A DNA stretch of 49,513 bases, taken from Macrostomum lignano (taxonomy: Eukaryota). The stretch lies in contig NIVC01004341.1 in the NCBI GenBank assembly GCA_002269645.1, positions 1-49,513 of the forward strand, in the 5' to 3' direction. The notes beneath the pieces are model-generated. The model searched no databases. It worked only from the letters and a program-made list of their open reading frames with translations, and was not told the DNA's origin. The position numbers and the translations under genes are program-made. This document shows, piece after piece, positions 5,591 to 49,513 of the stretch. Position 1 is the first letter of the stretch, and every line of letters starts with the position of its first letter.

Positions 5591-5683
5591 AAGAAATGAG
5601 TGCAGTTACGAGTAATAGATGTCAGTAAGCCCGAATAAATGCACCCAAGCCAGCCGCAGCTTCTCACCCGCAATCCACGCCAG

Positions 5684-7010: not shown

Positions 7011-7088
7011 GTGAGATTGTTTAAACTTCTTTACCTGCCAGTTTTGCTCAATTCATGGACCTCTGGAGATCTGGACTGGACTCAACCG

Positions 7089-7715: not shown

Positions 7716-7726
7716 CGATGTTTCAG

Positions 7727-7825
7727 AGCACACGAGCCCAGCTCTGGAGGAATTTATGGAACTAATTGCTACTAAAGTTTCGTTGAAAAATTTCGACAAA
7801 TTCAAAGGCGGCTTGGACTCGAAGT
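7727..7825 (+). CDS. SIPA1L: SIPA1L-like exon 3 (Rap-GAP)
   Basis: TTTCAG| acceptor, phase 1; reads (E)HTSPALEEFMELIATKVSLKNFDKFKGGLDSK; donor |GTGAGT. Not in the ORF track. Confidence 0.92.
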
Positions 7826-8524
7826 GTGAGTATAAGACTTGGCGTGACGCAAATGTGGGACCGCTGCTCCTACAAACGCTGTATACAGAGGGGTCTAGTT
7901 CTGAGCATATATGAGCGGGGAAAAGGGCCGCAAATAATCTCCGACCCTAGCAACACGGGGGGATTTATTAATCCTTTTGACTTCATTCTCTTTTTCTTCA
8001 TCAGTGGCAGCAGAATGCTCCTCACACACACACATGCGTCTCCCTCTCTCCAGCCGACAAAGGAAAACGCGGGGGAGGGAGTGAGATTAAGGCGGGGCAA
8101 ATGCAGGGCAGGTAAGAATGCGGGATGAGCTGAGAAAGGGAAGGAAGAGAACTGAGTGGGGATTTTCGAATGCGGACTTGCGGTACGCGGGCGGGCATCT
8201 GCGTGTAGGGAAGAGAGCTCGGGGTGTTTCGGCGTGTCAGTTTTCTTCTCGCCCTGATTTCAGCGGCGGCTGCTGTAAGACAGAAAGAGACGGTAAGGCA
8301 GGGATGCGGGGTACACAGAGGCTGAACGCTCGCTTCTCTATCTGCAGCCGATTCTCCGCCTCAGTTTGCCGGTTTTGCTATTAACAGATTTCTAGTCTTG
8401 CTTTCGCATAGCTCTCCCCATTGCTTGCATGGGGGAAATGTTTTATACATTGCTTTGCTACTTGAATTTTGCTACTGCGATAGTCTGTTTTGGGAAAGAG
8501 AGCTCTCTGCTTTGCTCTGCGCCA

Positions 8525-9935
8525 TCTCTGTCTGTCCGTCTGCCTGTCTAATCTACCTGTCTGTGCCTGATCTACCTGTCTGTGTGCCTGATCTACCTGT
8601 CTGTGTTCCTGATCTACCGGTCTGTGTGCCTGATCTACCTGTCTGTGTGCCTGATCTACCTGTCTGTGTGCCTGATCTACCTGTCTGTGCCTGATCTACC
8701 TGTCTGTGTGCCTGATCTACCTGTCTGTGCCTGATCTACCTGTCTGTGTTCCTGATCTACCTGTCTGTGTTCCTGATCTACCTGTCTGTGTTCCTGATCT
8801 ACCTGTCTGTGTACCTGATTTACCTGTCTGTGTTCCTGATCTACCTGTCTGTGCCTGATATACCTGTCTGTGTGCCTGATCTACCTGTATGTGTGCCTGA
8901 TCTACCTGTCTGTGCCTGATCTACCTGTCTGTGCCTGATCTACCTGTATGTGTGCCTGATCTACCTGTCTGTGTGCCTGATCTACCTGTCTGTGTTCCTG
9001 ATCTACCTGTCTGTGTGCCTGATCTACCGGTCTGTGTGCCTGATCTACCTGTCTGTGCCTGATCTACCTGTCTGTGTGCCTGATCTACCTGTCTGTGTGC
9101 CTGATCTACCTGTCTGTGTTCCTGATCTACCTGTCTGTGTTCCTGATCTACCTGTCTGTGTTCCTGATCTACCTGTCTGTGTTCCTGATCTACCTGTCTG
9201 TGTGCCTGATCTACCTGTCTGTGCGCCTGATCTACCGGTCTGTGTGCCTGATCTACCTGTCTGTGTTCCTGATCTACCTGTCTCTGTGCCTGATCTACCT
9301 GTCTGTGTTCCTGATCTACCTGTCTCTGTGCCTGATCTACCTGTCTGTGTTCCTGATCTACCTGTCTGTGCGCCTGATCTACCGGTCTGTGTGCCTGATC
9401 TACCTGTCTGTGTGCCTGATCTACCTGTCTGTGTTCCTGATCTACCTGTCTGTGTGCCTGATCTACCGGTCTGTGTGCCTGATCTACCTGTCTGTGTGCC
9501 TGATCTACCTGTCTGTGTTCCTGATCTACCTGTCTGTGCGCCTGATCTACCGGTCTGTGTGCCTGATCTACCTGTCTGTGTTCCTGATCTACCTGTTTGT
9601 GTGCCTGATCTACCTGTCTGTGTTCCTGATCTACCTGTCTGTGTGCCTGATCTACCTGTCTGTGTTCCTGATCTACCTGTCTGTGCGCCTGATCTACCGG
9701 TCTGTGTGCCTGATCTACCTGTCTGTGTGCCTGATCTACCTGTCTGTGTTCCTGATCTACCTGTCTGTGCGCCTGATCTACCGGTCTGTGTGCCTGATCT
9801 ACCTGTCTGTGTTCCTGATCTACCTGTTTGTGTGCCTGATCTACCTGTCTGTGTTCCTGATCTACCTGTCTGTGTGCCTGATCTACCTGTCTGTGTTCCT
9901 GATCTACCTGTCTGTGTTCCTGATCTACCTGCCTG
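8525..9935. repeat. 19-21-bp minisatellite (GTGCCTGATCTACCTGTCTGT)
   Basis: About 1.4 kb of tandem copies in intron 3. Confidence 0.97.
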
Positions 9936-10724
9936 TATCTCTCATTTCGGCCCGTAACAGTGACTTCAAAGGATTATATGGGAATGCCTTATCTGATGTA
10001 AATGTCGGGGATCAGCTCAAAATAATACGCCTACGAGCAGCGAGAAGTTTAGTTTTAGTTTTTTTATTTAAAATAAAGTTACAACCAAGATTTCTAATAT
10101 TAACACGAACAGAGAGGCAGATTTTTCTGCCGAACTAATGAGCACGAGATATCCGCGTGGCTCTCTAGAGAACAGTTAAAGTCATAAATTAGTTGGCCTT
10201 ATTGTCAAATTTGTACTTTTATTTACATATATAGACTCTCGGTCTGTTGCCGGCAGGAGATGGCCAAGTAATTATCGTGCAGTGGATAGCAGTTCCTCAT
10301 TTTTGTCAGTTTTCTCTCTATGTACAGGTTTTATAATCCCGTGACAGAAAGAAGATGTTTTGCTGATGGAGAATGGAAAGTTTAGCAGGGAGTTGGCCTA
10401 ACTAGGCAATGCATATATATACAGGCTATGAGACGCTGTGCGCCTCTTTCCCAACCGGTTGCTTCTCCCAACTACAATCGTCTCCTAGCATTAGCATTGG
10501 GAAGGTTAGGAATTAATAAGCGCACTATTTTTCTATGCCGCCAATGACTTTTCCTAATGATTTTTATTGATTATATAATGTAGCACTTGTATAGCAACTG
10601 GAATTGGGCGCAAGTCTGAGTCTGTCCTATTTTAATTTCTCGTCTACCGATCCCAGGTCCTCTACTAATCAATGAAATATTTCACATTTCCTTTGCACTC
10701 TCGTGCACTCTCGTGCCATCTCTT

Positions 10725-11575
10725 GTCTTACTCTACCCTCTCCCGTGTTCCTCTACCCTCTCCCGTGTTGCTTTACCCTCTCCCGTGTTCCTCTACCCTC
10801 TCCCGTGTTCCTCTACCCTCTCCCGTGTTGCTTTACCCTCTCCCGTGTTCCTCTACCCTCTCCCGTGTTCCTCTACCCTCTCCCGTGTTCCTCTACCCTC
10901 TCCGTGTTCCTCTACCCTCTCCCGTGTTCCTCTACCCTCTCCCGTGTTCCTCTACCCTCTCCCGTGTTCCTCTACCCTCTCCCGTGTTCCTCTACCCTCT
11001 CCGTGTTCCTCTACCCTCTCCCGTGTTCCTCTACCCTCTCCCGTGTTCCTCTACCCTCTCCCGTGTTCCTCTACCCTCTCCCGTGTTCCTCTACCCTCTC
11101 CGTGTTCCTCTACCCTCTCCCGTGTTCCTCTACCCTCTCCCGTGTTCCTCTACCCTCTCCCGTGTTCCTCTACCCTCTCCCGTGTTCCTCTACCCTCTCC
11201 CGTGTTCCTCTACCCTCTCCGTGTTCCTCTACCCTCTCCCGTGTTCCTCTACCCTCTCCCGTGTTGCTTTACCCTCTCCCGTGTTCCTCTACCCTCTCCC
11301 GTGTTCCTCTACCCTCTCCCGTGTTGCTTTACCCTCTCCCGTGTTCCTCTACCCTCTCCCGTGTTCCTCTACCCTCTCCCGTGTTCCTCTACCCTCTCCG
11401 TGTTCCTCTACCCTCTCCCGTGTTCCTCTACCCTCTCCCGTGTTCCTCTACCCTCTCCCGTGTTCCTCTACCCTCTCCCGTGTTCCTCTACCCTCTCCGT
11501 GTTCCTCTACCCTCTCCCGTGTTCCTCTACCCTCTCCCGTGTTCCTCTACCCTCTCCCGTGTTCCTCTACCCTCT
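10725..11575. repeat. 20-bp minisatellite (CTCTACCCTCTCCCGTGTTC)
   Basis: Tandem copies in intron 3. Confidence 0.97.
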
Positions 11576-11688
11576 ACTGCTTTCCTGTACCCTCCTGCCT
11601 TTTTTACCCTCTACCGTTTTCATTTGCCCTCCTGCCTTCCACTCTACTCTCTACACTGAACTGTCACACCAAACCGTCACACCTACAG

Positions 11689-12079
11689 GCACAGGCGATT
11701 ACACTTATTATACTACTATGGGCGACTGCGAGCTGGTATTCCACGTGTCCACCATGCTGCCCTATTCAAATACTAACCGGCAGCAGCTGCTGCGCAAGAA
11801 GCACATCGGTAACGATATCGTTACTATAGTGTTCCAGGAGCCGGGGGCTCTGGCGTTCTCTCCTAGGACGGTTCGCAGCCAGTTCCAGCACGTGTTCATT
11901 GTGGTCCGGGCGCACAACCCCTGCACTAAGAAGCTCTACTATTCGGTGGCCGTAGCCCGCTCAGAGGAGATGCCGGCGTTTGGGCCGCCGTTCTCAGCCG
12001 GGCACCAGTTCGCCAGGGAGCCAGCGTTCAGAGAGTTCCTCCTGCGCAAGATCATCAACGGGGAGAACGCCGCGTTCAG
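11689..12079 (+). CDS. SIPA1L: SIPA1L-like exon 4 (Rap-GAP catalytic core)
   Basis: FHVSTMLPY...[22 protein letters not shown]...FQHVFIVVR...INGENAAF, including the GND asparagine-thumb motif; acceptor CCTACAG|, donor TTCAG|GTGAC. Confidence 0.95.
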
Positions 12080-12099
12080 GTGACTTGGAGTCGGGAACT

Positions 12100-12210
12100 A
12101 AGACAGACAGACAGCGGAGTACAGAGAGACACAGACAGACAGACAGAGGAGTACAGAGACAGACAGACAGACAGACACAGACAGGCAAACAGACAGGCAG
12201 ACAGACAGAC

Positions 12211-12243
<33 letters not shown>

Positions 12244-12324
12244 GACAGACAGGCAGACAGACAGACACAGACAGACAGACACAGACAGACAGACAGGCAG
12301 ACAGACAGACACAGACAGACAGAC

Positions 12325-12359
<35 letters not shown>

Positions 12360-12372
12360 CAGACAGACAGAC

Positions 12373-12403
<31 letters not shown>

Positions 12404-12545
12404 GGCAGGCAGACAGACAGACAGACAGGCAGGCAGCAGACAGACAGACAGACAGACAGACAGACAGGCAGGCAGGCAGACAGACAGACAGACAGACAGG
12501 CAGGCAGACAGACAGACACACAGACAGACAGACAGACACTGAACA
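12100..12545. repeat. (ACAG)n microsatellite
   Basis: Tetranucleotide run in intron 4. Confidence 0.97.
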
Positions 12546-12697
12546 GACAAAGCAACACACTGCCATGCCAAGGTAATCACAAAACTTGCAGACCAACAAA
12601 CAGATACAAAGCACACCAACAAAACATACTAATACATAGGCTACTCACCAGTGCCAGTGGGCTTGACGCCATCCACCCCTCCCCTGACATGCCTCAG

Positions 12698-12995
12698 GTC
12701 AGAGAAGTTCTGCCAGATGCAGAAACGCACCCGTGAGGACCGGCTGAAGGAGCTGGCTGAATCGCATTCCGCCGCCGCCACTATCGACATAAAATCGACG
12801 CGCTCTCTGCTGGGCAGCGGCCGGCGTCGCAGCTCCAAGTCGCTGACTGCAAGCAACGACGCCGTCAACCGACTGGTTGTTGAACTCAATGAAGCTCTGA
12901 GATTTGAAGTCACCCTGACCGAGCCTAACAATAGAGAGATGCGCTGCGACCTGCTTATTGGCCGCACTTACCTGGCCCTGCAGTACGGACAGCAG
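12698..12995 (+). CDS. SIPA1L: SIPA1L-like exon 5
   Basis: Phase-2 join gives RSEKFCQMQKRTREDRLKELAE, matching SIPA1L KSEKF..M..RTR..YLKDLAE; donor CAG|GTGAG. Confidence 0.92.
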
Positions 12996-13084
12996 GTGAG
13001 GATTATGTTTTGTTTATAATTGCCCATTGGTTTATATTTTCTTTAAAAGTATTTACCCGATGAGAATCTCATTCTCAATGCAAA

Positions 13085-13812
13085 TCGTCCCATCACTAAA
13101 GAGAATCTCCCCATCACCAGTAAGAATCGCCCCATCACCAACAAGAATCGCCCCATTAACAATGAGAATCTCCCCATCACCAATGAGAATCTCCCCCATC
13201 ACCAATGAGAATCTCCCTATCACCAATGAGAACCGCCCCATCACCAATGAGAATCTCCCCATCACCAGTAAGAATCGCCCCATCACCAACAAGAATCGCC
13301 CCATTAACAATGAGAATCACCCGCATCACCAATGAGAATCACCCCATCACCAATGAGAATCTCCCCCATCACCAATGAGAACCGCCCCATCACCAATGAG
13401 AACCACCCCATCACCAATGAGAATCTCCCCCATCACCAATGAGAATCTCCCCCATCACCAATGAGAATCTCCCTATCACCAATGAGAACCGCCCCATCAC
13501 CAATGAGAATCTCCCCATCACCAACAAGAATCGCCCCATTAACAATGAGAATCACCCGCATCACCAATGAGAATCTCCCCCATCACCAATGAGAACCGCC
13601 CCATCACCAATGAGAATCTCCCCCATCACCAATGAGAATCGCCCCATCACCAATGAGAACCGCCCCATCACCAATGAGAATCTCCCCCATCACCAATGAG
13701 AATCTCCCCATCACCAATGAGAATCACCCGCATCACCAATGAGAATCTCCCCCATCACCAATGAGAATCTCCCCATCACCAATGAGAATCGCCCCATTAA
13801 CAATGAGAACCG
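13085..13812. repeat. ~21-bp minisatellite (GAGAATCTCCCCATCACCAAT)
   Basis: Tandem copies in intron 5. Confidence 0.95.
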
Positions 13813-13894
13813 CCCTATTCCGAATCGCCCTTTAGCCCAAGTCTGTTCCCAAAGCCAGCAGTTGCTATACCCGGCCAATTGGCCAATTCCCCAG

Positions 13895-14499
13895 GTGCTG
13901 CTATCGATCCCGACCGGCTGCATGCTGTCGTGGCGCACAGGCCAGGCGGGAGAGCTCACTGTGTATTACAATCGCGGCGAGCTGCTCCGCATGCGCTGCT
14001 CAACCGAAACCGCCTGCCAGTTGGCGGCCCGCCGCCTGGCCTGGCTTGGCGAACAGGAAACCCCCGGCGCTTGCCAGGCCATCGAAGTCACGGTGCACCG
14101 CGTCACGGCCTACGAGGCCAGCCTGAGCTTCGGCGTACAAGCCGACGCTTTCTACGTTCGCTCTGTGGACTCGGCCGCCCTGCCGGACGTGGCTAAAAAC
14201 TCTCGTTTAGTAGAATTGTGCGGCGTGCCGATCTGCGCCATGCCGGAGGCGCGCGTATTCAACCTGCTGCAGACCGAGGCCCAGCTGGCACTCGTGCTGG
14301 TGCCACCAACTTCAAAAGGCGCCGTCCGTTGTTCGCAGGAGTTGCGCGATATTTTCCTGACTAATCGAGCGCACGCTCTGTTCTGCCCAGCCGGGGCTGC
14401 CGGCAGCGGACAGGGCAGCCCGGAAGTCGGCCCGGACCATGGCGACTGTCGCTTCCTGGATGCGTCTCTGCTGCGCAGCGGAGAAGCCGCGGTTTCCGG
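13895..14499 (+). CDS. SIPA1L: SIPA1L-like exon 6, containing a divergent PDZ domain
   Basis: Acceptor CCCCAG|; VLLSIPTGCMLSW; PDZ-like SLSFGVQ...NSRLVELCGVPI...LLQT...LVLVPP; donor GG|GTGAG. Confidence 0.88.
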
Positions 14500-14599
14500 G
14501 TGAGAAATTCTTTTCTTTTCCACTCAGGCAGATTCAATCCTCATTTGCCCTGTGGATATTTTCCCTTTGTTCATTCATCCGCCAACCCGATGGTGTAAC

Positions 14600-35974: not shown

Positions 35975-38900
35975 ACACCTCATACTGCTCCCCCTCTGAC
36001 ACACCTCATGCAGACTGCTCCCCTTCTGACACACCTCAAACTGCTCTCCCCTCTGACACACCTCATGCAGACTGCTCCCCTTCTGACACACCTCAGACTA
36101 CTCCCCTTCTGACACACCTCATACTGCTCCCCCTCTGACACACCTCATGCAGACTACTCCCCTTCTGACACACCTCAAACTGCTCTCCCCTCTGACACAC
36201 CTCATGCAGACTACTCCCCCTCTGACACACCTCATGCAGACTACTCCCCTTCTGACACACCTCATGCAGACTGCTCCCCTTCTGACACACCTCATGCAGA
36301 CTACTCCCCCTCTGACACACCTCATGCAGACTACTCCCCCTCTGACACACCTCATGCAGACTACTCCCCTTCTAACACACCTCATGCAGACTACTCCCCT
36401 TCTGACACACCTCATGCAGACTACTCCCCTTCTGACACACCTCAAACTGCTCTCCCCTCTGACACACCTTAAACTGTTCTCCCCTCTGACACACCTCAAA
36501 CTGCTCCCCCCTTTGACACACCTCAAACTGCTCCCCCCTCTGACACACCTCAAACTGCTCTCCCTCTGACACACCTCAAACTGCTCCCCCCTCTGACACA
36601 CCTCAAACTGCTCCCCCTCTGACACACCTCAAACTGTTCTCCCCTCTGACACACCTCAAACTGCTCCCCCCTCTGACACACCTCAAACTGTTCTCCCTCT
36701 GACACACCTCAACCTACTCCCCCTCTGACACACCTCATGCAGACTACTCCCCTTCTAACACACCTCATGCAGACTACTCCCCCTCCGACACACCTCAAAC
36801 TGCTCCCCCTCTGACACACCTCACACTGCTCCCCCTCCGACACACCTCAAACTGCTCCCCCTCTGACACACCTCAAACTGCTCCCCCTCTGACACACCTC
36901 AAACTGCTCCCCCTCTGACACACCTCAAACTGCTCCCCCTCTGACACACCTCAAACTGCTCCCCCTCTGACACACCTCACACTGCTCCCCCTCTGACACA
37001 CCTCAAACTGCTCCCCCTCTGACACACCTCACACTGCTCCCCCTCTGACACACCTCAAACTGCTCCCCCTCTGACACACCTCAAACTGCTCCCCTCTGAC
37101 ACACCTCAAACTGCTCCCCCTCTGACACACCTCAAACTGCTCCCCCTCTGACACACCTCAAACTGCTCCCCCTCTGACACACCTCAAACTGCTCCCCCTC
37201 TGACACACCTCAAACTGCTCCCCCTCTGACACAACTCAAACTGCTCCCCCTCTGACACACCTCACACTGCTCCCCCTCTGACACACCTCAAACTGCTCCC
37301 CCTCTGACACACCTCAAACTGCTCTCCCTCTGACACACCTCAAACTGCTCCCCCTCTGACACACCTCAAACTGCTCCCCCTCTGACACACCTCAAACTGC
37401 TCCCCCTCTGACACACCTCAAACTGCTCCCCCTCTGACACACCTCAAACTGCTCCCCCTCTGACACACCTCAAACTGCTCCCCTCTGACACACCTCAAAC
37501 TGCTCCCCCTCTGACACACCTCAAACTGCTCCCCCTCTGACACACCTCAAACTGCTCCCCCTCTGACACACCTCAAACTGCTCCCCCTCTGACACACCTC
37601 AAACTGCTCCCCTCTGACACACCTCACACTGCTCCCCCTCTGACACACCTCAAACTGCTCCCCTCTGACACACCTCAAACTGCTCCCCTCTGACACACCT
37701 CAAACTGCTCCCCCTCTGACACACCTCAAACTGCTCCCCCTCTGACACACCTCAAACTGCTCCCCCTCTGACACACCTCATGCAGACTACTCCCCTTCTA
37801 ACACACCTCATGCAGACTACTCCCCCTCCGACACACCTCAAACTGCTCCCCTCTGACACACCTCACAACTGCTCCCCCTCTGACACACCTCAAACTGTTC
37901 TCCCTCTGACACACCTCAACCTACTCCCCCTCTGACACACCTCATGCAGACTACTCCCCTTCTAACACACCTCATGCAGACTACTCCCCCTCCGACACAC
38001 CTCAAACTGCTCCCCCTCTGACACACCTCAAACTGCTCCCCCTCTGACACACCTCAAACTGCTCCCCCTCTGACACACCTCAAACTGCTCCCCTCTGACA
38101 CACCTCAAACTGCTCCCCCTCTGACACACCTCAAACTGCTCCCCCTCTGACACACCTCAAACTGCTCCCCCTCTGACACAACTCAAACTGCTCCCCCTCT
38201 GACACACCTCACACTGCTCCCCCTCTGACACACCTCAAACTGCTCCCCCTCTGACACACCTCAAACTGCTCTCCCTCTGACACACCTCAAACTGCTCCCC
38301 CCTCTGACACACCTCAAACTGCTCCCCCTCTGACACACCTCAAACTGCTCCCCTCTGACACACCTCAAACTGCTCCCCCTCTGACACACCTCAAACTGCT
38401 CCCCTCTGACACACCTCAAACTGCTCCCCCTCTGACACACCTCAAACTGCTCCCCCTCTGACACACCTCAAACTGCTCCCCCTCTGACACACCTCAAACT
38501 GCTCCCCTCTGACACACCTCAAACTGCTCCCCCTCTGACACACCTCAAACTGCTCCCCCTCTGACACACCTCACACTGCTCCCCCTCTGACACACCTCAA
38601 ACTGCTCCCCCTCTGACACACCTCAAACTGCTCCCCCTCTGACACACCTCAAACTGCTCCCCCTCTGACACACCTCAAACTGCTCCCCCTCTGACACACC
38701 TCAAACTGCTCCCCCTCTGACACACCTCATGCAGACTACTCCCCTTCTAACACACCTCATGCAGACTACTCCCCCTCCGACACACCTCAAACTGCTCCCC
38801 CTCTGACACACCTCACACTGCTCCCCCTCCGACACACCTCAAACTGCTCCCCCTCTGACACACCTCAAACTGTTCTCCCTCTGACACACCTCAACCTACT

Positions 38901-40410
38901 CCCCCTCTGACACACCTCATGCAGACTACTCCCCTTCTAACACACCTCATGCAGACTACTCCCCCTCCGACACACCTCAAACTGCTCCCCTCTGACACAC
39001 CTCAAACTGCTCCCCTCTGACACACCTCAAACTGCTCCCCCTCTGACACACCTCAAACTGCTCCCCCTCTGACACACCTCAAACTGCTCCCCCTCTGACA
39101 CACCTCAAACTGCTCCCCCTCTGACACACCTCAAACTGCTCCCCCTCTGACACACCTCAAACTGCTCCCCCTCTGACACACCTCAAACTGCTCCCCTCTG
39201 ACACACCTCAAACTGCTCCCCCTCTGACACACCTCAAACTGCTCCCCCTCTGACACACCTCAAACTGCTCCCCCTCTGACACACCTCAAACTGCTCCCCC
39301 TCTGACACACCTCAAACTGCTCCCCCTCTGACACACCTCAAACTGCTCCCCCTCTGACACACCTCAAACTGCTCCCCCTCTGACACACCTCAAACTGCTC
39401 CCCTCTGACACACCTCAAACTGCTCCCCCTCTGACACACCTCACACTGCTCCCCCTCTGACACACCTCAAACTGCTCCCCCTCTGACACACCTCAAACTG
39501 CTCCCCCTCTGACACACCTCAAACTGCTCCCCCTCTGACACACCTCAAACTGCTCCCCCTCTGACACACCTCAAACTGCTCCCCCTCTGACACACCTCAA
39601 ACTGCTCCCCCTCTGACACACCTCAAACTGCTCCCCCTCTGACACACCTCAAACTGCTCCCCCTCTGACACACCTCAAACTGCTCCCCCTCTGACACACC
39701 TCAAACTGCTCCCCCTCTGACACACCTCAAACTGCTCCCCCTCTGACACACCTCAAACTGCTCCCCCTCTGACACACCTCAAACTGCTCCCCCTCTGACA
39801 CACCTCAAACTGCTCCCCCTCTGACACACCTCAAACTGCTCCCCCTCTGACACACCTCAAACTGCTCCCCCTCTGACACACCTCAAACTGCTCTCCCTCT
39901 GACACACCTCAAACTGCTCCCCCTCTGACACACCTCAAACTGCTCCCCCTCTGACACACCTCAAACTGCTCCCCCTCTGACACACCTCACACTGCTCCCC
40001 TCTGACACACCTCAAACTGCTCCCCCTCTGACACACCTCAAACTGCTCCCCTCTGACACACCTCAAACTGCTCCCCCTCTGAAACACCTCAAACTGCTCC
40101 CCCTCTGACACACCTCACACTGCTCCCCCTCTGACACACCTCAAACTGCTCCCCCTCTGACACACCTCAAACTACTCCCCCTCTGACACACCTCAAACTG
40201 CTCCCCCTCTGACACACCTCAAACTACTCCCCCTCTGACGCACCTCAAACTGCTCCCCCTCCGACACACCTCAAACTGCTCCCCCTCTGACACACCTCAA
40301 ACTGCTCCCCCTCTGACACACCTCAAACTGCTCCCCCTCTGACACACCTCACACTGCTCCCCCTCTGACACACCTCAAACTGCTCCCCCTCTGACACACC
40401 TCACACTGCT
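35975..40410. repeat. 26-bp satellite (CTGACACACCTCAAACTGCTCCCCCT), ~4.4 kb
   Basis: Period of 26 measured directly; makes up most of the intron. Confidence 0.98.
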
Positions 40411-40745: not shown

Positions 40746-40821
40746 GTAGGTCCAGAGTTTTATACTAATTGGTGGAATGTGAAACCAGTCAAACAGTTTT
40801 TCCCTTCTGTGAGTTGCGTGA

Positions 40822-41381
40822 ATTGCTATGGGAATGCCAAGCATGATCTCAACTGGTTGCTATGGCTTGCCGAACATTATCTCAACTGGTTGCTATGGGA
40901 ATGCCAAGCATGATCTCAACTGGTTGCTATGGCTTGCCGAACATTATCTCAACTGGTTGCTATGGGAATGCCAAGCATGATCTCAACTGGTTGCTATGGC
41001 TTGCCGAACATTATCTCAACTGGTTGCTATGGGAATGCCGAGCATGATCTCAACTGGTTGCTATGGCTTTCCGAACATTATCTCAACTGGTTGCTATGGG
41101 AATGCCGAACATTATCTCAACTGGTTGCTATGGGAATGCCAAGCATGATCTCAACTGGTTGCTATGGCTTGCCGAACATTATCTCAACTGGTTGCTATGG
41201 GAATGCCGAGCATGATCTCAACTGGTTGCTATGGCTTGCCGAACATTATCTCAACTGGTTGCTATGGGAATGCCGAGCATGATCTCAACTGGTTGCTATG
41301 GCTTGCCGAACATTATCTCAACTGGTTGCTATGGGAATGCCGAGCATGATCTCAACTGGTTGCTATGGCTTGCCGAACATT
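40822..41381. repeat. 33/34-bp dimeric satellite (ATCTCAACTGGTTGCTATGG core), cut off by the Polinton
   Basis: Alternating ...GGCTTGCCGAACATT and ...GGGAATGCCAAGCATG units; ends abruptly at 41381. Confidence 0.95.
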
Positions 41382-41659
41382 AGTAGTAGGGAAAAAGACG
41401 CTTCCAGACCCAGAGCACTTTTTTAACAGCCGTTTTAAGGGTCTAGAGGGGGGACACGGGGGGGTAAATAAAAAACACATCTAAACACCCTTAACACATC
41501 TAATCACCCATAATCACCCACAACACCCCTTAATACCAAAAATCAATATAACCCATCCCCAACTCATCTTATCACACCCCTCGTGTCCCCCCTCTGGAAC
41601 CTTATAAACGATCATTAAAAAAGGTCTGATCTGGAAGCGTCTTTTTCCCTACTACTACT
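41382..41659. repeat. Palindromic terminal segment of the Polinton
   Basis: 41382-41408 (AGTAGTAGGGAAAAAGACGCTTCCAGA) is the exact reverse complement of 41630-41656; imperfect pairing extends about 85 bp. Confidence 0.9.
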
Positions 41660-41713
41660 CTATAACCCCTTGCCCGCGCCGCAGGCGCGAAGGGTCTTTT
41701 TCTGTTACTAAAA

Positions 41714-42028
41714 ATGACCCGAGTTTACACCTTTTCTGTTAGTGATACTTTTGAGACTGTTGCTAAAAATGCAGAGATAATAAAACAACATATTTTGAAT
41801 GGAATAATTGATGAAGTTTATTTAAAATATGACGACAAGCATGACCTAAAGCTTTATCCATTAGAGCTAGATGAGATGTATGATTTAGAACAAGAGGGTG
41901 AGTTAATATTTCAACTTGGAGATTATTTAAATTCGGATGATTGGGAGGTTAGATCAACAGATTCCGAATCAACAAATAGTTCATATGAAACCAGTGATTC
42001 AGAGAATGAAAGTGAAATTTTTATGTGA
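41714..42028 (+). CDS. Polinton hypothetical acidic protein (104 aa)
   Basis: Intact ORF with AAAAATG start and acidic C-terminus; no recognised motif. Confidence 0.6.
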   Translation: MTRVYTFSVSDTFETVAKNAEIIKQHILNGIIDEVYLKYDDKHDLKLYPLELDEMYDLEQEGELIFQLGDYLNSDDWEVRSTDSESTNSSYETSDSENESEIFM

Positions 42029-42044
42029 AAAAAATATTTAAAAA

Positions 42045-42299
42045 ATGAACTATTATTCTATAACAGAAACGACGTTTATTATGAAAAATATATATAAAAA
42101 AATGAAGGTAAATCGAACCCATGGTTCGCGTGCTTTGCACGATTATTCCTACATCGGAAATGTTCCAATTAATGAACTTAATGAAAATTTAAGTTTGATA
42201 ACAGTTGAACAAATGTCAATAATAATATTAGTAACAATAATAGTAATAATATTGTTTTTGTTTGTAATAAAAAATTTACTACCATGTTGTCTTAAGTAA
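42045..42299 (+). CDS. Polinton small single-pass membrane protein
   Basis: C-terminal hydrophobic helix IIILVTIIVIILFLFVI followed by KNLLPCCLK; contains one double-hairpin element in frame. Confidence 0.55.
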   Translation: MNYYSITETTFIMKNIYKKMKVNRTHGSRALHDYSYIGNVPINELNENLSLITVEQMSIIILVTIIVIILFLFVIKNLLPCCLK

Positions 42300-42309
42300 C
42301 TGTTCGAAC

Positions 42310-43456
42310 TTAGTTCGCTGATATTAGTTGGTTCTCATAAAACGAACCCAATATTTCTTCACCGTCCTTATCAGCAATTATATAGGTTGTAGGATTGGTA
42401 TTTAAAACTTTACTGATAGTAAATTTCTCACTTATCTTCCAATATCCTTTTCTTCCTTTTTCAAACTTATCTTTCCATTTATAGATATAAACAGAATCAC
42501 CAACCTTAAAAGATTTCTTTTTATTTTTTTCAAATTTTCCAAAAGTAACTTTAACGTTTTCAGGATTGTTATAAGCTTGTTGAGGAGTCATCTTTATCGC
42601 CGAATGATATGAATTGTTATAATCTTTCACTACGTCTGGTAATATTTTTACCCATTTTTGGTTACCATTAAGACTAAACTGAAACCACAATTTCTTACCT
42701 AAAGTTCGATTAAATCTTTCTATTAATGCGTTTTTGCTTTCTCCATAAATAGAATAAATTTTATTAATATACTCCCCATTCGCGTCTTTTTTCCTTTCTT
42801 GTCCTTTTTCAAAATGATATAATTTATACATATGAGGATTGTAAAATTCTTTTCCTTCGTCAACACACAAACGTTCGCTTTTTTCTCCAAGACTTCTAAA
42901 AGCAGCAGCAACATCCTCTCCTTTTTTGGATTTCAAAGGAACAGCCCACGCGTATCGAGTAAAACCATCTAATATGGTTAAGATATATTTATATCCTCTT
43001 TCGTTCGGCATCGACATTAAATCAGCATACCAAATTTCATTCTTTTTGAAGTTCATGATTTTTCTATAAAATTTCGGTTTTCGATATTCTTTATGAAGAA
43101 TCTTTGCCTCATCAGAACTTAACCCACCACCACTTAACAACAAACACTCAACACAATTATTTCCATGTTGATTATAATTAATTCCCAAACCAAATTTAAC
43201 TTTAGACTGCAAGATCTTTTTAACCATCCACCTAGTTAATTTTTGACCTACCGATAATCCCTGCAAGTTATCTAATCCTTGAATCATTTTTTGATCGGCT
43301 TCATGTTTTAATCTTAATGCTTCCTCGGGGTGTTCTTATCAGCATCTCTGTATGCTAAGTCATGATAGTATGCTAACCAATCAATTCCATTTATGGAATT
43401 GAATCGGCTTTTGGGGTGTCATCAGGATTTAATCTCAAATCTAAGCGAGTGCCGGG
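42310..43456 (-). CDS. PLA2-integrase fusion, exon 2 (PLA2 catalytic half, rve integrase, chromo-like tail); two single-base deletions near 43394 and 43328
   Basis: PGTRLDLRLNPDD...INGIDWLAYYHDLAY...KHEADQKM...KILQSKVKFGLG is in frame, after two +1 corrections, with the DDE integrase motifs WYADL, CVDEGKEF and ERFNRTL. Confidence 0.88.
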
Positions 43457-43789
43457 TAGTTTACCCTCAATCTTTCGAAAGAGGCTGGAGCACACCTTAA
43501 GCGGCGATAATTACCGCCCATCTCCGTCTGCTCTCTGAACCTTCTCCTTATATTTAAAATACTTAGGAGCTTGGCTGCGCATTGCCACCGTGTCTTCAAG
43601 CTTGTTACCATCGAACCATAGGTTCGCGTGCAAAGCACGATTGGGAAGAGGAGTTACCTCTGTTCCTTCAAAAGATTTCTCAATTGAAGTGGTACTTGAA
43701 GCTGTATGACGGGTTTCACGCAATTTGGAGATGTCGCCACAAATAGTGACTAGCAAGGACATTGCCTTCCTCACTCAGGCCACGGGTTA
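43457..43789 (-). ncRNA. Group I intron (IC1-like ribozyme, 333 nt, no homing-endonuclease ORF)
   Basis: P motif AAATTGCGTGAAA; Q AATGCGCAGCCAAG; R GTTCAGAGAGCA; S AAGGTGTGCTCC. P3 CATCTCC/GGAGATG; P7 GAGCA/TGCTC; P5abc with A-rich bulge TGGTAACAAG and GAAA loop; IGS GCCTG pairs with exon CAGGT (U.G). Removal restores NFTG|PGT. Confidence 0.93.
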
Positions 43790-43915
43790 ACCTGTGAAGT
43801 TCATTGATGGTAGGTGTAGTTCCCCTGTATATTTACCAGTAGTAAAGATTGGTGGTAAGCTTGTTAATCCTTTTTGAACATCTAACAATCCTCCTTCAAA
43901 CACTATTTGGTTCAT
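43790..43915 (-). CDS. PLA2-integrase fusion, exon 1
   Basis: AAAAATG start; MNQIVF...GELHLPSMNFTG matches the ELHLPG(Y)N(F/Y)xGPGT motif of Polinton/parvovirus-type PLA2; the intron begins with TAA. Confidence 0.88.
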
Positions 43916-44465
43916 TTTTAATAGCCTTAAAAATACATGAAAGCACCAATTGTTTTGCAAACTCTTCAATGGTTGGTTGTTTAACTTTTTTATAGTTATT
44001 ATCTACGCTAGTTAAGTATCTTTTATTTGTCCAATGTTCAGACTTTTTCATCTGATCTTCATCTTTGTAACTAAACGAAGAAGCGGGAATGAAATGATCA
44101 ATATCTAAATTTCCAGTATAATCTTTTGAAACATAATATTTTCTTGTGAAATTTAACCAATCAAAAAAGAATTCTTTTGTGCAATCAAGATATGAGATAT
44201 AGTCCTTGTCATTAAAATTTTTCAACGCCCAATTTATTCTATTTCTAATTAAAACAATATGTTTGTAATTATCATCATTGTGATACTTGTTTTTTCTATA
44301 TTCATTAAATTTATCTTTATTGTTTTTCATCCAAATAGTAGATGAGGTATTATGACAAGATCGACAATCATTTCTAAATTTTTTTGAATCATTTCTCCAA
44401 AAATAAAATTCTTTCGTCATTGGTTTTTCTTGTTTACACTTAATACAAATCTTTTTAGGTTCCAT
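43896..44465 (-). CDS. Free-standing HNH endonuclease with N-terminal zinc ribbon
   Basis: CIKC...CRSC zinc finger and DIDHFIP...HWTN...DNNYK, resembling the HIDH..P...CFH.TNLQPL..EN..K HNH nucleases of large DNA viruses; overlaps the PLA2 start by 20 nt. Confidence 0.78.
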   Translation of the reverse strand: MEPKKICIKCKQEKPMTKEFYFWRNDSKKFRNDCRSCHNTSSTIWMKNNKDKFNEYRKNKYHNDDNYKHIVLIRNRINWALKNFNDKDYISYLDCTKEFFFDWLNFTRKYYVSKDYTGNLDIDHFIPASSFSYKDEDQMKKSEHWTNKRYLTSVDNNYKKVKQPTIEEFAKQLVLSCIFKAIKNEPNSV

Positions 44466-44492
44466 TTTATAAAAAATAAATTTAACAATTAA

Positions 44493-45164
44493 TTAAACTC
44501 CAGTATGTCCAGCAGCTTTCGCAGCAGCTAAAACAAGTTTTCGCGGTGTTTTAAATCCTTCTCCAACAGCTGGTTTGTTATTTATAGAATTAACAATCCT
44601 TTTATACAAGCTGGTATTTTTAGCAGCTCTTACTCCCAACTCATCATAAAAAATTTTTGCACTTACTAATTCATCCCTAGTATATAATTCAGGGTTAAAT
44701 TTTACCCTAGGGTTCATAACAATATTATATGCTCCGCCCAATTCTCTATATAGTTCATTTCGATTTTTATCAACTCCACCAATTCGATAATTATTATTAC
44801 CTAAATCTGTCACAGCAATACTAGTTGGTGCAGCTCTCGGATATTCATCAACTCCACCCCTTTCTGCAGCCCTAATCTCTGCAACTCTCAATTGAGCTTG
44901 ATCAACATCATAAGCTGGCGGCTCATCCAAAATTTCATCCTCTTTTGGCTCCGTATTTTTAGCAATTTTTTCCAGAAGATCTTTATCTGTTTTTTCTAGT
45001 TCACTAATTTTCCCAGTAATAGGATTAACAAAAGGAGCAGCAAATCTTTCACCCGCTAATTGTATTCCTAACTTTCTTTTTTGTAAATTTCTAACAAAAT
45101 CAGAATATCTTTGCTTCTCTTTATAAATCGCTAACTCTCCATCAACGTCCATAAATTGACTCAT
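44493..45164 (-). CDS. Polinton hypothetical protein (223 aa)
   Basis: Intact ORF with AAAAATG start; F..PIT..L-like motif of the kind seen in Polinton accessory ORFs; function unassigned. Confidence 0.65.
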   Translation of the reverse strand: MSQFMDVDGELAIYKEKQRYSDFVRNLQKRKLGIQLAGERFAAPFVNPITGKISELEKTDKDLLEKIAKNTEPKEDEILDEPPAYDVDQAQLRVAEIRAAERGGVDEYPRAAPTSIAVTDLGNNNYRIGGVDKNRNELYRELGGAYNIVMNPRVKFNPELYTRDELVSAKIFYDELGVRAAKNTSLYKRIVNSINNKPAVGEGFKTPRKLVLAAAKAAGHTGV

Positions 45165-45201
45165 TTTTTAACATAAAAAACTTTTTTAACTTAAAAAAAT
45201 G
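45162..45201. promoter_or_regulatory. Near-palindromic 34-bp intergenic region between divergent start codons
   Basis: CATTTTTTAACATAAAAAACTTTTTTAACTTAAAAAAATG is nearly its own reverse complement. Confidence 0.55.
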
Positions 45202-46669
45202 GCTGAAACAAAAACTATGTGGAGTGATAAATTTCATTTCAAAAAGCACCGACAGTATATTAATGAGGTCAGAGCAAGAGATTTAAATTATACCCTACCA
45301 ACAAGTGATAATTCAAATAACTTTACTACTGGAACGGTAACTTTTGACATCGGCGCAACCAACACTATATTGGATATGAAAAATGCGTTTTTCCGCGTTA
45401 GATGGTTGTATACTAGAAATGATGGAACTGCTCTTGCAGCCGGAGATATCGCAGATCGATCCGGAATAATAATAGAAAATGATTGGTTTTATAAATGTTT
45501 TTCCCAAGCTCAACTAACTGTTAATGGTGCTGAGGTTGAGACATCATCAAACCCCGCAGAGATTAATGGAGTTTTGAAACATTTAAATTATACTTATTTA
45601 TCAAAACAAGTTGGTGATAATGTTGGGTGGATGCCGGATAAAGGTAACGGTCAAGCAGTAGTTTTCCCTAATGTACAAAACGCAGCCGGTGCAGATACTG
45701 CAGCGCTAATTGTTTACCTTAATACAAACATAGTTCCAGTTGTAACCACTATGACTAATACAAAAGATATTAATACTGGTTTTATAGATCGTCAGAATAA
45801 ATTCCCAGTCGCGGTTTTAACCACGGCGACGGCATATGAGCAGGACTTTTCAATCTTCCCGCTATTTGGGTTCTTCTCACCAAATCGGGTATGGAAAGGA
45901 TTAAAATTTGGGATACAGTTGCAAATATCTGGTGGATATCAGCCTAGGATACTTTATGGAACCTCAATTTCAACCGATATAGCAGTTCGTATAGATTCAA
46001 TTCAATTAGTCGTACCAACTATTGAGGTAACAGCTCCGCTTTTAAAACACATCGATAATCAGTTAACGCATGATCAGGAAATATTTTATTTGAATCGTAG
46101 ACACTTTATGCGAACCATTAATAACAATCAGGATTCATTCCAGTGGCAAATACTGACATCAAAACGTCGGGTGAGATATATTTTTGTTTGGTTTAAGATA
46201 ACAAATAGAAGGAGTAAAAGAGCAAATGGGGATTTATATTGGCTTCAATCGGTGACATAGCAGCACAAGCAGCTACCGCAACAGACAACGCAGTTGCTGC
46301 AATTAACGAGTTTAATGTTCAGAATATCCGCCTGCAGGTTGATGATCAATATTATCCGGTTAAAGACCCCTAAATTTAAATATAGCAAATAATAATGTTA
46401 ATGATTTTATAAAATATTATCAAGATTATGCTAAAAATGAAGCGTATGCCGTCCCTCAGTACACACCCACAGAGTTTCTAAACATTCATCCAGTGGTTGT
46501 TTATGATCTAACGGCACAGAAAGAAAACGTAGCCAATATTGGACTTAATTATATGTTAGAGATTAATAAAACCGGTAATCAGGCACTTGACGCCCACGTA
46601 TTGTTTCTAGAGGAATATATGTCAATTGCTAAAGCTGATGGCACGATTGTTCGGGACGCGCCGCTGTAA
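45199..46669 (+). CDS. Major capsid protein (double jelly-roll), frameshifted near 46200-46240 and ~46370
   Basis: 353-aa ORF continues in shifted frames as ...NIRLQVDDQYYPVKDP/LNLNIANNN...FLNIHPVVVYDLTAQKE...RDAPL*, a typical Polinton MCP C-terminus. Confidence 0.85.
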
Positions 46670-46720
46670 AATGAGTGCAGGTCTCCGACCGTCGCGCCTA
46701 TTTAAATTATTTCTTTAAAA

Positions 46721-47521
46721 ATGGTAAAGGCAAAACACGATAAGATATTTCCAAATGATCCTTTTCTTTGTTTAGTAATTGGTGGGTCGGGTAAAGGAAA
46801 AACACACTTTGTTTACGATTTATTAACAACAGATGGAATGCTAGACTATAATAATTTAATAATTTATACTAACAAACCTAGAATAAAATATTATGAATTT
46901 CTTAAACATGGATTAAAAAACAAATTAAAAAAAGATGTCTTGTTTAGAATGTTAAGAGCATATGAGCAATATGAGGATGATGACGAACCGCGATTTAATC
47001 TAGCAGACATTGAGGATTTATGTAAAACAATGGCACAACAGCCAGAAAACATCACCGATCGCCCCGAAGGGTCGCGGACTTCGTCCGATCGAGCCCCAAC
47101 TGTTAGAGTATCAACCCGATTAGCCTATGATCAAATTCCAAAACATGATAAAACACTAATTATTTTTGATGATTGTATTAATGACGGTGATCAAGAATTA
47201 CAAAAGGAAATTTTTGTTAGTGGTAGAGGAGATGGAATTGGAGCTTTTTATCTTACTCAATCCTTTAGAGAATTAGAATCGATTATAAAAAAGAATGCTA
47301 GCTGTTGTGTAATGTTTGATTTAGATAACTATGATCTACAAAATATTCACGCTAGATTTAATCCCGGGTTGGATGCAAAACCATTTAAAAGTATGTGTAA
47401 AAAAATTTGGGATGATAGCCAATACAAACATATTTATATCAATCCGAGGTTAGAAAGGAAACATAGAATTTTAACAAATTTGATAAAAGAAGATAATGAG
47501 GAAGAAGAGGATCGTGCATAG
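46721..47521 (+). CDS. A32/FtsK-like DNA packaging ATPase
   Basis: Walker A GGSGKGKT, Walker B LIIFDD, R-G..IG..YLTQS motif; carries a 10-aa in-frame hairpin insertion. Confidence 0.93.
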   Translation: MVKAKHDKIFPNDPFLCLVIGGSGKGKTHFVYDLLTTDGMLDYNNLIIYTNKPRIKYYEFLKHGLKNKLKKDVLFRMLRAYEQYEDDDEPRFNLADIEDLCKTMAQQPENITDRPEGSRTSSDRAPTVRVSTRLAYDQIPKHDKTLIIFDDCINDGDQELQKEIFVSGRGDGIGAFYLTQSFRELESIIKKNASCCVMFDLDNYDLQNIHARFNPGLDAKPFKSMCKKIWDDSQYKHIYINPRLERKHRILTNLIKEDNEEEEDRA

Positions 47522-47602
47522 CACGCGTACCTTCGGTACGATCGCCCCATAGGGTCGCGAACTTCGTTCGATCGTTCCTTCGGAACGCGGACTTCGTCCG
47601 AT
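47511..47602. repeat. Three tandem 28-bp double-hairpin elements separated by AT
   Basis: Cores at 47513-47540, 47543-47570 and 47573-47600. Other copies at 42114-42141, 43612-43639, 47060-47087, 48408-48435, 48460-48487 and 49083-49110. Confidence 0.93.
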
Positions 47603-47620
47603 TAATTTCCCACTATAAAA

Positions 47621-48406
47621 ATGACTACAAATTTAGATACTATAAAACAATTGGTAGATCGAACTAATTCAAAATTTAGTACAACATTACAGTTTATAAT
47701 GACAACCAGCGAGCAACGGATTCAATTGCGCGATCCATTACAACTTGATCAAAGCCTAAGTTATCAAATAGGTTTAATACTATTTTCGGTTTTCAACATG
47801 CCTCAATTAATTAATGCAACAAATAATCAATTTAGATATTCTAAAGATTCCGGAGCCAATTGGACAACATTTAGCGTTAACCCAGGAGCGTATAGCTATA
47901 CTGATTTGAATGCTTATATAGAAGGAGAATTAACATCTAACGGCGATTGGGTAGCAGGGCGAATTGTTATAGGTGTTGATTTACCGTCTGGCAGATTCAC
48001 ACTATCACTAGGATCCGGATATCAGGTTGATTTCACAATTGCAAATTCACTCAGAACCATACTTGGATTTAATTCCCGAATAGTTACCACATCAAGCACC
48101 GGTGATACAGTTGGAAATATAGAGGGTGGAGTAAATACAATTAATATAACAACCGACATTTCAAACGGTGGTTATATAACAGACGATAACGGAGTTTTGG
48201 TTCAACGTGGAATTATTTATTCAATCCCATTTCTTGCTGTTCCAATTGGAGAGAAAATGATTGTATCACCTCAAACCCCAATATATTACCCATTAAATCA
48301 ATATAATGTTCAATCAATTTATATTAGGATTGTAGATGAAAGCGATAGATTAATAAGTTTTGGTGGGCAGTCAATAACAGTGATTTTACGTATAAAACAG
48401 GTTTAG
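47621..48406 (+). CDS. Minor capsid protein (penton, single jelly-roll)
   Basis: P..LD...YQIGL..F..FN, GVNTINITTDI, PQTPIYYPLN, IRIVDESDRLISFGG..ITVILRIK pattern of Polinton minor capsid proteins. Confidence 0.88.
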   Translation: MTTNLDTIKQLVDRTNSKFSTTLQFIMTTSEQRIQLRDPLQLDQSLSYQIGLILFSVFNMPQLINATNNQFRYSKDSGANWTTFSVNPGAYSYTDLNAYIEGELTSNGDWVAGRIVIGVDLPSGRFTLSLGSGYQVDFTIANSLRTILGFNSRIVTTSSTGDTVGNIEGGVNTINITTDISNGGYITDDNGVLVQRGIIYSIPFLAVPIGEKMIVSPQTPIYYPLNQYNVQSIYIRIVDESDRLISFGGQSITVILRIKQV

Positions 48407-48450
48407 CCGAACCAAAGGTTCGAGGACTTTGTCCGTTTCCTATAGTAAAA

Positions 48451-48660
48451 ATGGGTAATCGAACAACATGTTCGCGTGCAAAGCACGATAATAATAATAA
48501 TTTAATAAAAAAACAATCAGAAAAAGTTAAAAAAGCTGAAGATAATTACGAACTAGAACTAGCAAAATTAAGGCAGTTACAAGCTGATAAAATAAGAAAG
48601 GAATTGTTAAAACCCACACCTACGAAACTAACTAAAACCAAGAGTTTTTCAGGAACATAA
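48451..48660 (+). CDS. Polinton small basic/coiled-coil protein (69 aa)
   Basis: AAAAATG start; codons 3-13 derive from a hairpin element. Confidence 0.45.
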   Translation: MGNRTTCSRAKHDNNNNLIKKQSEKVKKAEDNYELELAKLRQLQADKIRKELLKPTPTKLTKTKSFSGT

Positions 48661-48661
48661 A

Positions 48662-49049
48662 ATGACCATGACGTGGGATGATTTTAAACAAGATATGGAA
48701 CGGACACAACAAGCAATATCGAATTAACAAATTGGGCGAGGCAGTTAAAAATAAAACCATTCAGATGTGTTATGCGAGATGAGATCAAAGACTTACCACA
48801 ATATGGATCTTTCATTGTTAATATTGAAACAACAAAAGAAAACGGTGTGTTCATTGGTCAGCAGTTTATTCAAAACCAAAACTTGTTTATTTTTTTGATT
48901 CATACGCGCTTCCTCCGTTACAGGAAATAAAAGACAAATTTAATCATACTAAAAATCGTTTATGTGGAGATCATCACGAACAGTTTCAAACCTTTGATAA
49001 AAGTTATTGCGGACAAGCAGCGTTATATTTTATATCGACTTTCGAATGA
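48662..49049 (+). pseudogene. Adenain-like cysteine protease, frameshifted
   Basis: Fragments read SNIELTNWARQL...IVNIETTKENG/HWSAV...YF/FDSYALPP...QFQTFDKSYCGQ, containing the His, Asp, Gln and Cys catalytic residues. Confidence 0.85.
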
Positions 49050-49140
49050 AGCTCGTGTAAACCACAAAGTATTTAAGACTATCATGCAAAGCATGCGAAC
49101 CTAAGGTTCGATTTTAGACTCTATAAAATAGACAGTAAAA

Positions 49141-49513
49141 ATGATATTTTCTGGAACACCCTCATGGAACGGAACAACAAGTAGTGGTGTGGTGGCACAT
49201 CTGGTGGAATAAGTGTTACATTTGGAGATAATCGATATATTAATGAAGATGAAGGTTATAAAAAAAGTGAAGTGATACTAAACTAAATTTGAAACGGAAT
49301 GTTGCAGATTCCTATAAAACTGAAATCATACTTCATTAAATCTTAAAAGAGATATTAGCGATTCATATACAAAATCAGAGGTTGACACTGGGTTAAATTT
49401 AAAAAGAGATATAACTGATTCTTATTCTCGAACTGATTCTGATTCGCGTTTATGTTCAAGCCACCGCAACCGGAACTTTAGATATGGATAACAATCGAAT
49501 TATAAATGTTGCA
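49141..49513 (+). pseudogene. Frameshifted ORF, possibly fibre-like, truncated by the window end
   Basis: AAAAATG start; window ends in GTLDMDNNRIINVA, resembling the LDM..NRI.NV motif of fibre-like repeat proteins. Confidence 0.4.

Follow-up and report, generated by a model that had tools for sequence, protein, structure and literature searches.

The DNA analysed here is a single contig of 49,513 nt (NIVC01004341.1, hereafter the window) of the 764-Mb assembly of the eukaryote Macrostomum lignano, and the Polinton copies compared with it come from the same genome. The contig ends inside an integrated Polinton (Table 1), in which retroviral-type integrase (rve) and Pox_A32 ATPase domains were matched. 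Parvovirus-like PLA2 (PF08398) was matched on the intron-less copies L069 and L159, and sister copies (e.g., C2506, C3469, C2140, C3109, and C4889) encode protein-primed PolB (PF03175) on the same strand, ca. 10 kb upstream. Integrase, A32 ATPase, PLA2, a terminal repeat and, in the sister copies, pPolB are the features of the Polinton/Maverick elements, here of the adintovirus type with a PLA2X gene (PMC8502044, in part). To the left of the element are the exons of a host RapGAP gene (5639-14503; PF02145, PF21022), with introns rich in tandem repeats, and long tandem arrays border the element (about 36000-40400 and 40820-41380). The RapGAP exons, together with the PLA2X gene type, suggest that the host is an animal.

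Table 1. Features of the Polinton in the window (positions in the 49,513-nt contig)
Feature	Position	Strand	Basis
Left part of integrated Polinton	41381..49513	.	Terminal AGTAGT-type repeat, integrase, capsid-like ORFs, A32 ATPase; contig end falls inside element
Conserved 223-aa ORF, upstream flank of nuclease slot	44493..45164	-	Sequence conservation among copies
AT-rich start context of slot gene	44466..44492	-	Same motif precedes PLA2 in nuclease-free family-B elements
Putative free-standing zinc-ribbon plus HNH (beta-beta-alpha-metal) endonuclease, 189 aa, in exchangeable nuclease slot	43896..44465	-	Motifs, alignment, PHROG, fold
PLA2 exon 1, 42 codons	43790..43915	-	ATG overlaps HNH 3' end; final 5 nt enter P1 as its exon strand
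Group I intron without ORF, 333 nt, ending in A	43457..43789	-	RF00028, 61.1 bits; borders from intron-less copies
Short hairpin just before P3	43736..43750	-	Nuclease ORF in this loop in family B, L209, and L215
P7 strands (43535-43529 and 43492-43487) and 5' strand of P9.0 (43486-43485)	43485..43535	-	RF00028 alignment; canonical G-C guanosine-site pair
PLA2 exon 2	42310..43456	-	Runs on into retroviral-type integrase where copies are intact; frameshift near 43394 in the window

The first-pass annotation had described an intact zinc-ribbon plus HNH ORF overlapping the PLA2 start codon, and this was borne out. The ORF is free of stops, carries CxxC..CxxC and IDHFIP..N..N motifs, and has the PLA2 ATG (43915-43913) within its last 7 codons, an overlap of 20 nt. 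Its stop codon ends 106 nt from the end of exon 1, where ca. 107 nt had been given. The AT-rich tract in front of it could be the promoter or 5' leader of the gene. Catalysis by HNH nucleases depends on a His with an acidic residue before it and two conserved Asn, and these are all in place: in an alignment of 79 sequences H124, N147, N156, and K159 are invariant and D123 is kept in at least 90%, and none of the 14 aligned genome copies departs from D123, H124, N147, or N156. PHROG 1035 (endonuclease VII) matches residues 4-163 (E 9e-7). Among Pfam models none matched the ORF of the window, and PF01844 matched 2 of the 79 relatives. In a word-indexed homologue search with the single protein none of 24 candidates reached E 0.001; with a profile built from 14 genome copies, 16,445 representatives did so.

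Structure prediction, put forward earlier as a way of confirming the HNH fold, gave a mixed result. The model is of high confidence (pLDDT 94.5) and has strong matches among predicted viral structures, namely mimivirus L246 (E 5e-11), an “intron encoded endonuclease” of Bodo saltans virus (E 8e-9), and HNH proteins (E down to 5e-8), but its matches to solved structures are weak. The best in the PDB had E 0.01, mostly Cas9 HNH domains, with none at E ≤0.001, and in the VIA comparison the best was Hpy99I (Z 4.8, residues 1-43, rmsd 2.6, 42 aligned), with HNH proteins at Z 3-4.6; the zinc finger of Hpy99I was also the best hit of a sequence search against solved structures (E 0.015). Support for an HNH-type nuclease from PHROG 1035, the invariant H124, N147, and N156, and the fold matches is good but not complete. 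The dN/dS of the 42 intact ORFs, 0.44 overall and 0.31 in the catalytic region (residues 116-185), indicates that the gene is under purifying selection; the values for PLA2 exon 2 and for the alternative slot gene described below are 0.06 and 0.25. One could see in it a relic, or a housekeeping helper (e.g., in packaging or splicing) that no longer takes part in homing, as 35 of 104 genome copies are broken and its dN/dS greatly exceeds the value for PLA2 exon 2. We hold this to be very improbable, because the four catalytic positions are invariant in the aligned copies and because a gene that can be replaced by an unrelated fold, and that is absent from a second family of elements, is not an essential helper.

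The borders of the PLA2 intron are fixed by the natural intron-less copies L069, L105, and L126 and cannot slide. A scan of 19.5 kb with Rfam overlooked it, and a scan of a 451-nt stretch detected it as RF00028 (cut-off 50 bits; E 3.4e-15; model positions 1-253), with a match that spans the full group I core. The earlier statement that it encodes no nuclease stands, since its sole ORF of at least 80 aa (83 aa) reads through the ribozyme core and has no nuclease motif. P7 and P9.0 are named after the Tetrahymena numbering, and the hairpin in front of P3 is, in our reading, P2.1. The P7/P9.0 pattern of the window recurs in 110 of the 114 loci with this intron type (I1). A U-G pair closes P1 at the 5' splice site, and P1 covaries with the intron type, the exon ending in CAGGT in 112 of 114 I1 loci (guide GCCTG) and in CGGGT in 24 of 24 loci with a second type, I2 (guide GCCCG). 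I2 occupies the identical position in PLA2 (24 loci, e.g., L018:2210-2540), has a different P3/P4/P7 core and the P5 region in common, and is perhaps chimeric; Rfam gave no match for it (searched with L107), and its 3' splice site is ambiguous. Compared with the intron of the second family, P7 shows compensatory changes with the guanosine-site G-C pair kept.

The intron of the window does not end in the G expected of group I introns. The terminal nucleotide of I1 is A in 84 of 114 loci and G in 30, and the introns of the second family (family B) and of a metagenome contig, L209, end in G; in L213, another contig, the 3' end is apparently T. Alternative 3' splice sites that would restore a terminal G were ruled out, as the junction is set by the intron-less copies and P9.0 likewise indicates the A. 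Coral mitochondria reportedly offer a precedent for a terminal A. Codons 1-57 of exon 2, upstream of an internal integrase Met, have a dN/dS of 0.06 in both A-ending and G-ending copies, which suggests that both are spliced, a signal that recombination could also carry. Contigs from 4 of the 23 listed sequencing runs, none of them recorded as RNA, contained no intron-spanning joint, which is uninformative either way. In intact copies PLA2 and integrase share one reading frame (43915-42310 in the window, L218:7183-8541, and L069), and in L218 the PLA2 and rve domains were matched in one ORF; integrase output may thus hinge on splicing, unless the internal Met serves as a start.

After 11 duplicates had been dropped 169 loci were examined, of which 147 belong to the family of the window (family A). 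Both exons could be placed in 141, the other six being truncated or rearranged and excluded; these 141 represent 103 distinct haplotype classes and, as copies within a genome, are non-independent samples. In the PLA2 searches, which had 501 and 245 candidates, 150 were scored each time; both ran on into a more distant family, so that family A is probably near complete. The slot between the 223-aa ORF and PLA2 was filled in all 141 loci, with HNH in 104 (69 intact) and an unrelated Eco47II-like gene (RE) in 37 (26 intact), never with both. The N-terminal halves of HNH are mosaic, HNH and RE alleles have their first four codons in common (20 and 12 loci), and the elements recombine freely outside the HNH body (r2 about 0.1 within 100 nt). 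To judge from these copies, the slot is always filled and is exchanged by recombination. In the rearranged copies L154, L155 (C87), L070, L181, and L182 it is not PLA2 that comes after the slot nuclease but other genes or RING-finger-like ORFs.

The intron was present in 138 of the 141 loci. HNH was found with I1 in 84, with I2 in 17 and without an intron in three, and the corresponding numbers for RE were 30, 7, and 0. No significant pairing of nuclease and intron was detected (Fisher p 0.55-0.80 over the 141 loci, a comparison of low power with 138 of them intron-plus). The first-pass annotation had asked whether HNH and intron occur together across copies, and a positive association failed to appear, with 37 intron-plus loci carrying the other nuclease. 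The co-inheritance that is expected of collaborative homing was thus not seen in these 141 loci, which have little power, and a strict one-to-one partnership is not supported, as the intron is nearly fixed and equally so with either nuclease. All three intron-less loci carry HNH, in two of them intact. Compared with the nearest intron-plus exon flanks, their junctions have 2-4 changes in 30 nt, and for this reason the intron-less alleles with an intact HNH may be resistant.

Such a distribution could also arise by intronless homing or interference competition, in which both nucleases cut rival Polintons at a site unaffected by the intron (a flanking gene, an exon variant, or the rival slot allele) and compete for the slot, the intron simply hitchhiking. 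A slot that is always filled by mutually exclusive genes, in all four combinations with the two introns, speaks for this, as do the mosaic N-terminal halves, the shared first codons and the precedent in phages (PMC2988022, in part), and it would explain why the nuclease is kept under purifying selection in spite of a nearly fixed intron. We nevertheless consider it unlikely, if worth serious attention, because the divergence described below concentrates at the intron site and not elsewhere in the exons tested, and because both nuclease families are intron-borne at the same site in other elements.

One of these is family B, of the same genome, whose PLA2 is ca. 60% identical to that of family A. 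Its intron, at the same site, is ca. 880 nt long, and an Eco47II-like ORF fills the hairpin loop which in the window contains none. The PLA2 searches picked 22 family-B loci, six intron-plus with the ORF inside, 15 intron-less and one composite, and neither nuclease was present in the upstream stretch fetched for the 15 intron-less ones. Another 14 two-exon loci, a biased sample because picked by the RE gene, had the same layout. The intron-encoded ORF passes the PF09553 (Eco47II) cut-off (27.1 vs. 25.9 bits), and no methyltransferase stood out among the ORFs listed next to it. The Eco47II-like restriction-enzyme fold inside a group I intron, seen in family B and at L167:1273-1956, is a candidate new type of homing endonuclease. 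The RE tree, with its root open, does not tell in which direction the gene moved: the slot clade (99/100) arises from a polytomy whose other members mostly have an intron tail.

Beyond this genome, a search with the intron-core pattern retrieved 3 viral and 10 metagenome stretches, most of them capsid or RNA polymerase genes of the giant-virus type, together with two PLA2 genes, L209 and L213, interrupted at the same site as in the window. The contig L209 has an RF00028 intron (101 bits) and, in the same loop, an HNH of the same family (33% identical to that of the window over 114 aa, with one stop); the intron of L213 is ORF-less. An HNH of the same family lies inside the RNA polymerase intron of L215. 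The protein clusters P0038, P0194-96, P0198, and P0199 are 32-37% identical to the HNH of the window over residues 5-175, and their C-termini are a read-through of the same intron core. The Eco47II-like P0014 and P0018 bear an identical tail, and from this it appears that one and the same intron houses now one, now the other of the two nucleases in other elements. The nearest HNH relatives, P0036 and P0046, are without the tail, and the HNH of L209 is not the sister of the slot clade (quick tree only). Scans of viral contigs gave just 2 weak, N-terminal-only matches with the A1 query and nothing with P0038, the family-B PLA2, the RE protein or the 5'-junction pattern. Members of the same intron family, often in tandem, interrupt the capsid and RNA polymerase genes of the giant-virus-like contigs L203-L208, L210-L212, L214, and L215, with GIY-YIG-like or HNH ORFs near them.

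This company would also suit a defence nuclease that takes no part in the spread of the intron and is directed against a giant virus, either helper or competitor, or against foreign DNA of another kind: the closest folds are giant-virus proteins, the same intron family occupies genes of giant-virus-like contigs, and the alternative slot gene is restriction-enzyme-like (PF09553). Such a role appears to us quite improbable, since all 15 intron-less elements of family B do without either nuclease in the stretch fetched, and since neither the position of the slot nor the site-centred divergence would be explained by it.

The divergence in question is clearest in family B, where the 432 exon nt compared hold five fixed differences between alleles with and without the intron, all of them within -12 to +12 of the site (stop-free loci only, 8 of the 15 with the intron and 12 of the 14 without), and one of the five is the U required by P1. 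This clustering is what short co-conversion tracts, or the survival of resistant alleles, would be expected to leave. In family A, codon diversity peaks near the junction (1.03-1.07 vs. 0.55 bits, permutation p 0.002-0.009 in 61 haplotypes, codons being non-independent), and so does synonymous diversity (p 0.009-0.023 in the same number of haplotypes). A linkage scan of 71 HNH plus I1 haplotypes found no recombination peak at the junction.

We favour the interpretation that HNH is the homing endonuclease of this intron lineage, residing outside the intron and cutting sensitive intron-less PLA2 alleles, that is, collaborative (trans) homing, and give it a probability of about 0.55. HNH would belong to a homing endonuclease family carried inside group I introns of giant viruses and Polinton-like elements, and would probably have moved out of the intron to the slot. 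When two related Polinton genomes meet in one nucleus, presumably by co-infection, it would nick or cut PLA2 alleles in which the insertion site is empty and sensitive, and repair templated by the donor would copy the intron and in many cases also the slot gene, which is 106 nt from it. By splitting the target, the intron would protect the donor. The Eco47II-like nuclease would be the alternative occupant of the slot, with the same role.

The partnership of HNH and intron suggested at first pass is supported in some respects and not in others. An adjacent free-standing nuclease gene and an intron without an ORF of its own are what collaborative homing systems have. We count in its favour that L209 carries an HNH of this family in an intron at the same PLA2 site, with an ORF-less version in L213, that relatives of both nucleases have intron tails, that family B has either an intron with the Eco47II-like ORF inside or no intron and no nuclease, that divergence clusters at the insertion site in both families, and, lastly, the constraint on HNH, its fold match to Bodo saltans virus and the free recombination among elements. 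Against it we count the missing positive association with the intron, the flat recombination profile at the junction, the tail-less nearest relatives and the position of the L209 HNH in the tree. The three intron-less loci are all HNH-bearing, and a cognate cutter of the junction, intact in two of them, should destroy alleles that are not resistant. Besides, with 138 of 141 sites occupied few targets are left, yet 69 of 104 HNH genes are intact. The HNH family is also so large that some intronic members are expected by chance. With co-inheritance unseen, membership among the collaborative homing systems is not established. The broader proposition, that Polintons of a probably animal nuclear genome carry a working homing system derived from giant viruses, with a single group I intron in the PLA2-integrase gene, two unrelated, interchangeable nucleases, each found both inside that intron and outside it at the start of PLA2, and a majority intron variant that splices with a terminal A, we advance tentatively, with rather more doubt than confidence.

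Among known systems, mobE of phage T4 reportedly homes in trans. The closest likeness is with F-CphI and the psbA intron of cyanophage S-PM2, where a free-standing beta-beta-alpha-metal nuclease likewise lies beside a gene with an ORF-less group I intron (PMC6083498, in part), and to which the Endo VII-like PHROG match of HNH also points. Here, however, the carrier is an integrating virus of a eukaryote, two unrelated nucleases alternate, and intron-less alleles with an intact nuclease exist. The free-standing endonucleases of T4 (seg and mob, intronless homing) are, as in the window, promoter-less cassettes between conserved genes that overlap the downstream start (PMC2988022, in part). Host and target differ, and mob genes have the HNH fused to a C-terminal region, whereas here the zinc ribbon is N-terminal and the HNH C-terminal.

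Collaborative homing has been demonstrated in phages and is only proposed for eukaryotic viruses. In Bodo saltans virus, HNH or GIY-YIG endonucleases, the former related in fold to the HNH here, are encoded in group I introns; their ORF-less offspring introns were proposed to depend on trans homing, and interference competition has also been proposed (PMC5871332, in part). That virus is giant and cytoplasmic, with RNA polymerase targets and the nuclease inside the parental intron, and ours is small and integrating, with PLA2 as the presumed target and the nuclease outside. In entomopoxviruses collaborative homing has been raised as a possibility for helicase-nuclease pairs (PMC11296320, in part), and HNH domains occur within the pPolB of nematodes (10.1101/2023.08.22.554363, in part). 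Polinton-like viruses of protists, like the element here, have short RF00028 introns (309-376 bp) and free-standing HNH genes, but their introns interrupt a short, unannotated gene that precedes the one for the capsid, in three protist groups, and the available part of the source draws no link with a neighbouring nuclease (PMC12220804). Eco47II-family restriction endonucleases share PF09553 with the family-B ORF, but here the gene is intron-borne or in the slot. The literature searched (few subscription papers, and without the supplementary intron tables of PMC12220804) contained no report of a Polinton PLA2 intron, a two-nuclease slot or an intron-encoded Eco47II-like nuclease.

Nuclear group I introns were considered in 2013 to be confined to rRNA genes of microbial eukaryotes (PMC3679873, in part); here more than 100 copies interrupt a protein gene of a virus that has integrated. 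Introns with the nuclease inside, introns with it outside and alleles without an intron coexist in one genome, which opens the route proposed to link free-standing with intronic endonucleases to direct tests. If our reading is true, Polinton genomes meet and cut one another within one nucleus, and the intronic and free-standing stages of homing-endonuclease evolution stand side by side in one genome. The system further provides a candidate for a new fold among homing endonucleases (Eco47II-like) and, in its omega-A and omega-G introns, a natural pair of ribozymes.

The copy in the window is itself decaying, with a capsid-like ORF (45199-46630) that stops early near 46260, besides the frameshift in PLA2 exon 2. 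The end of the element (41381-41657) is a nested inverted repeat, with perfect 28-nt arms 221 nt apart and a 45-nt inner pair. A family of palindromic insertions of 30-36 nt is scattered along the element (at 42110, 43608, 47056, 47539, 47569, 48404, 48458, and 49081); they occupy ORFs, spacers, and the P5 region of the intron, which occurs in 333-nt and 303-nt variants.
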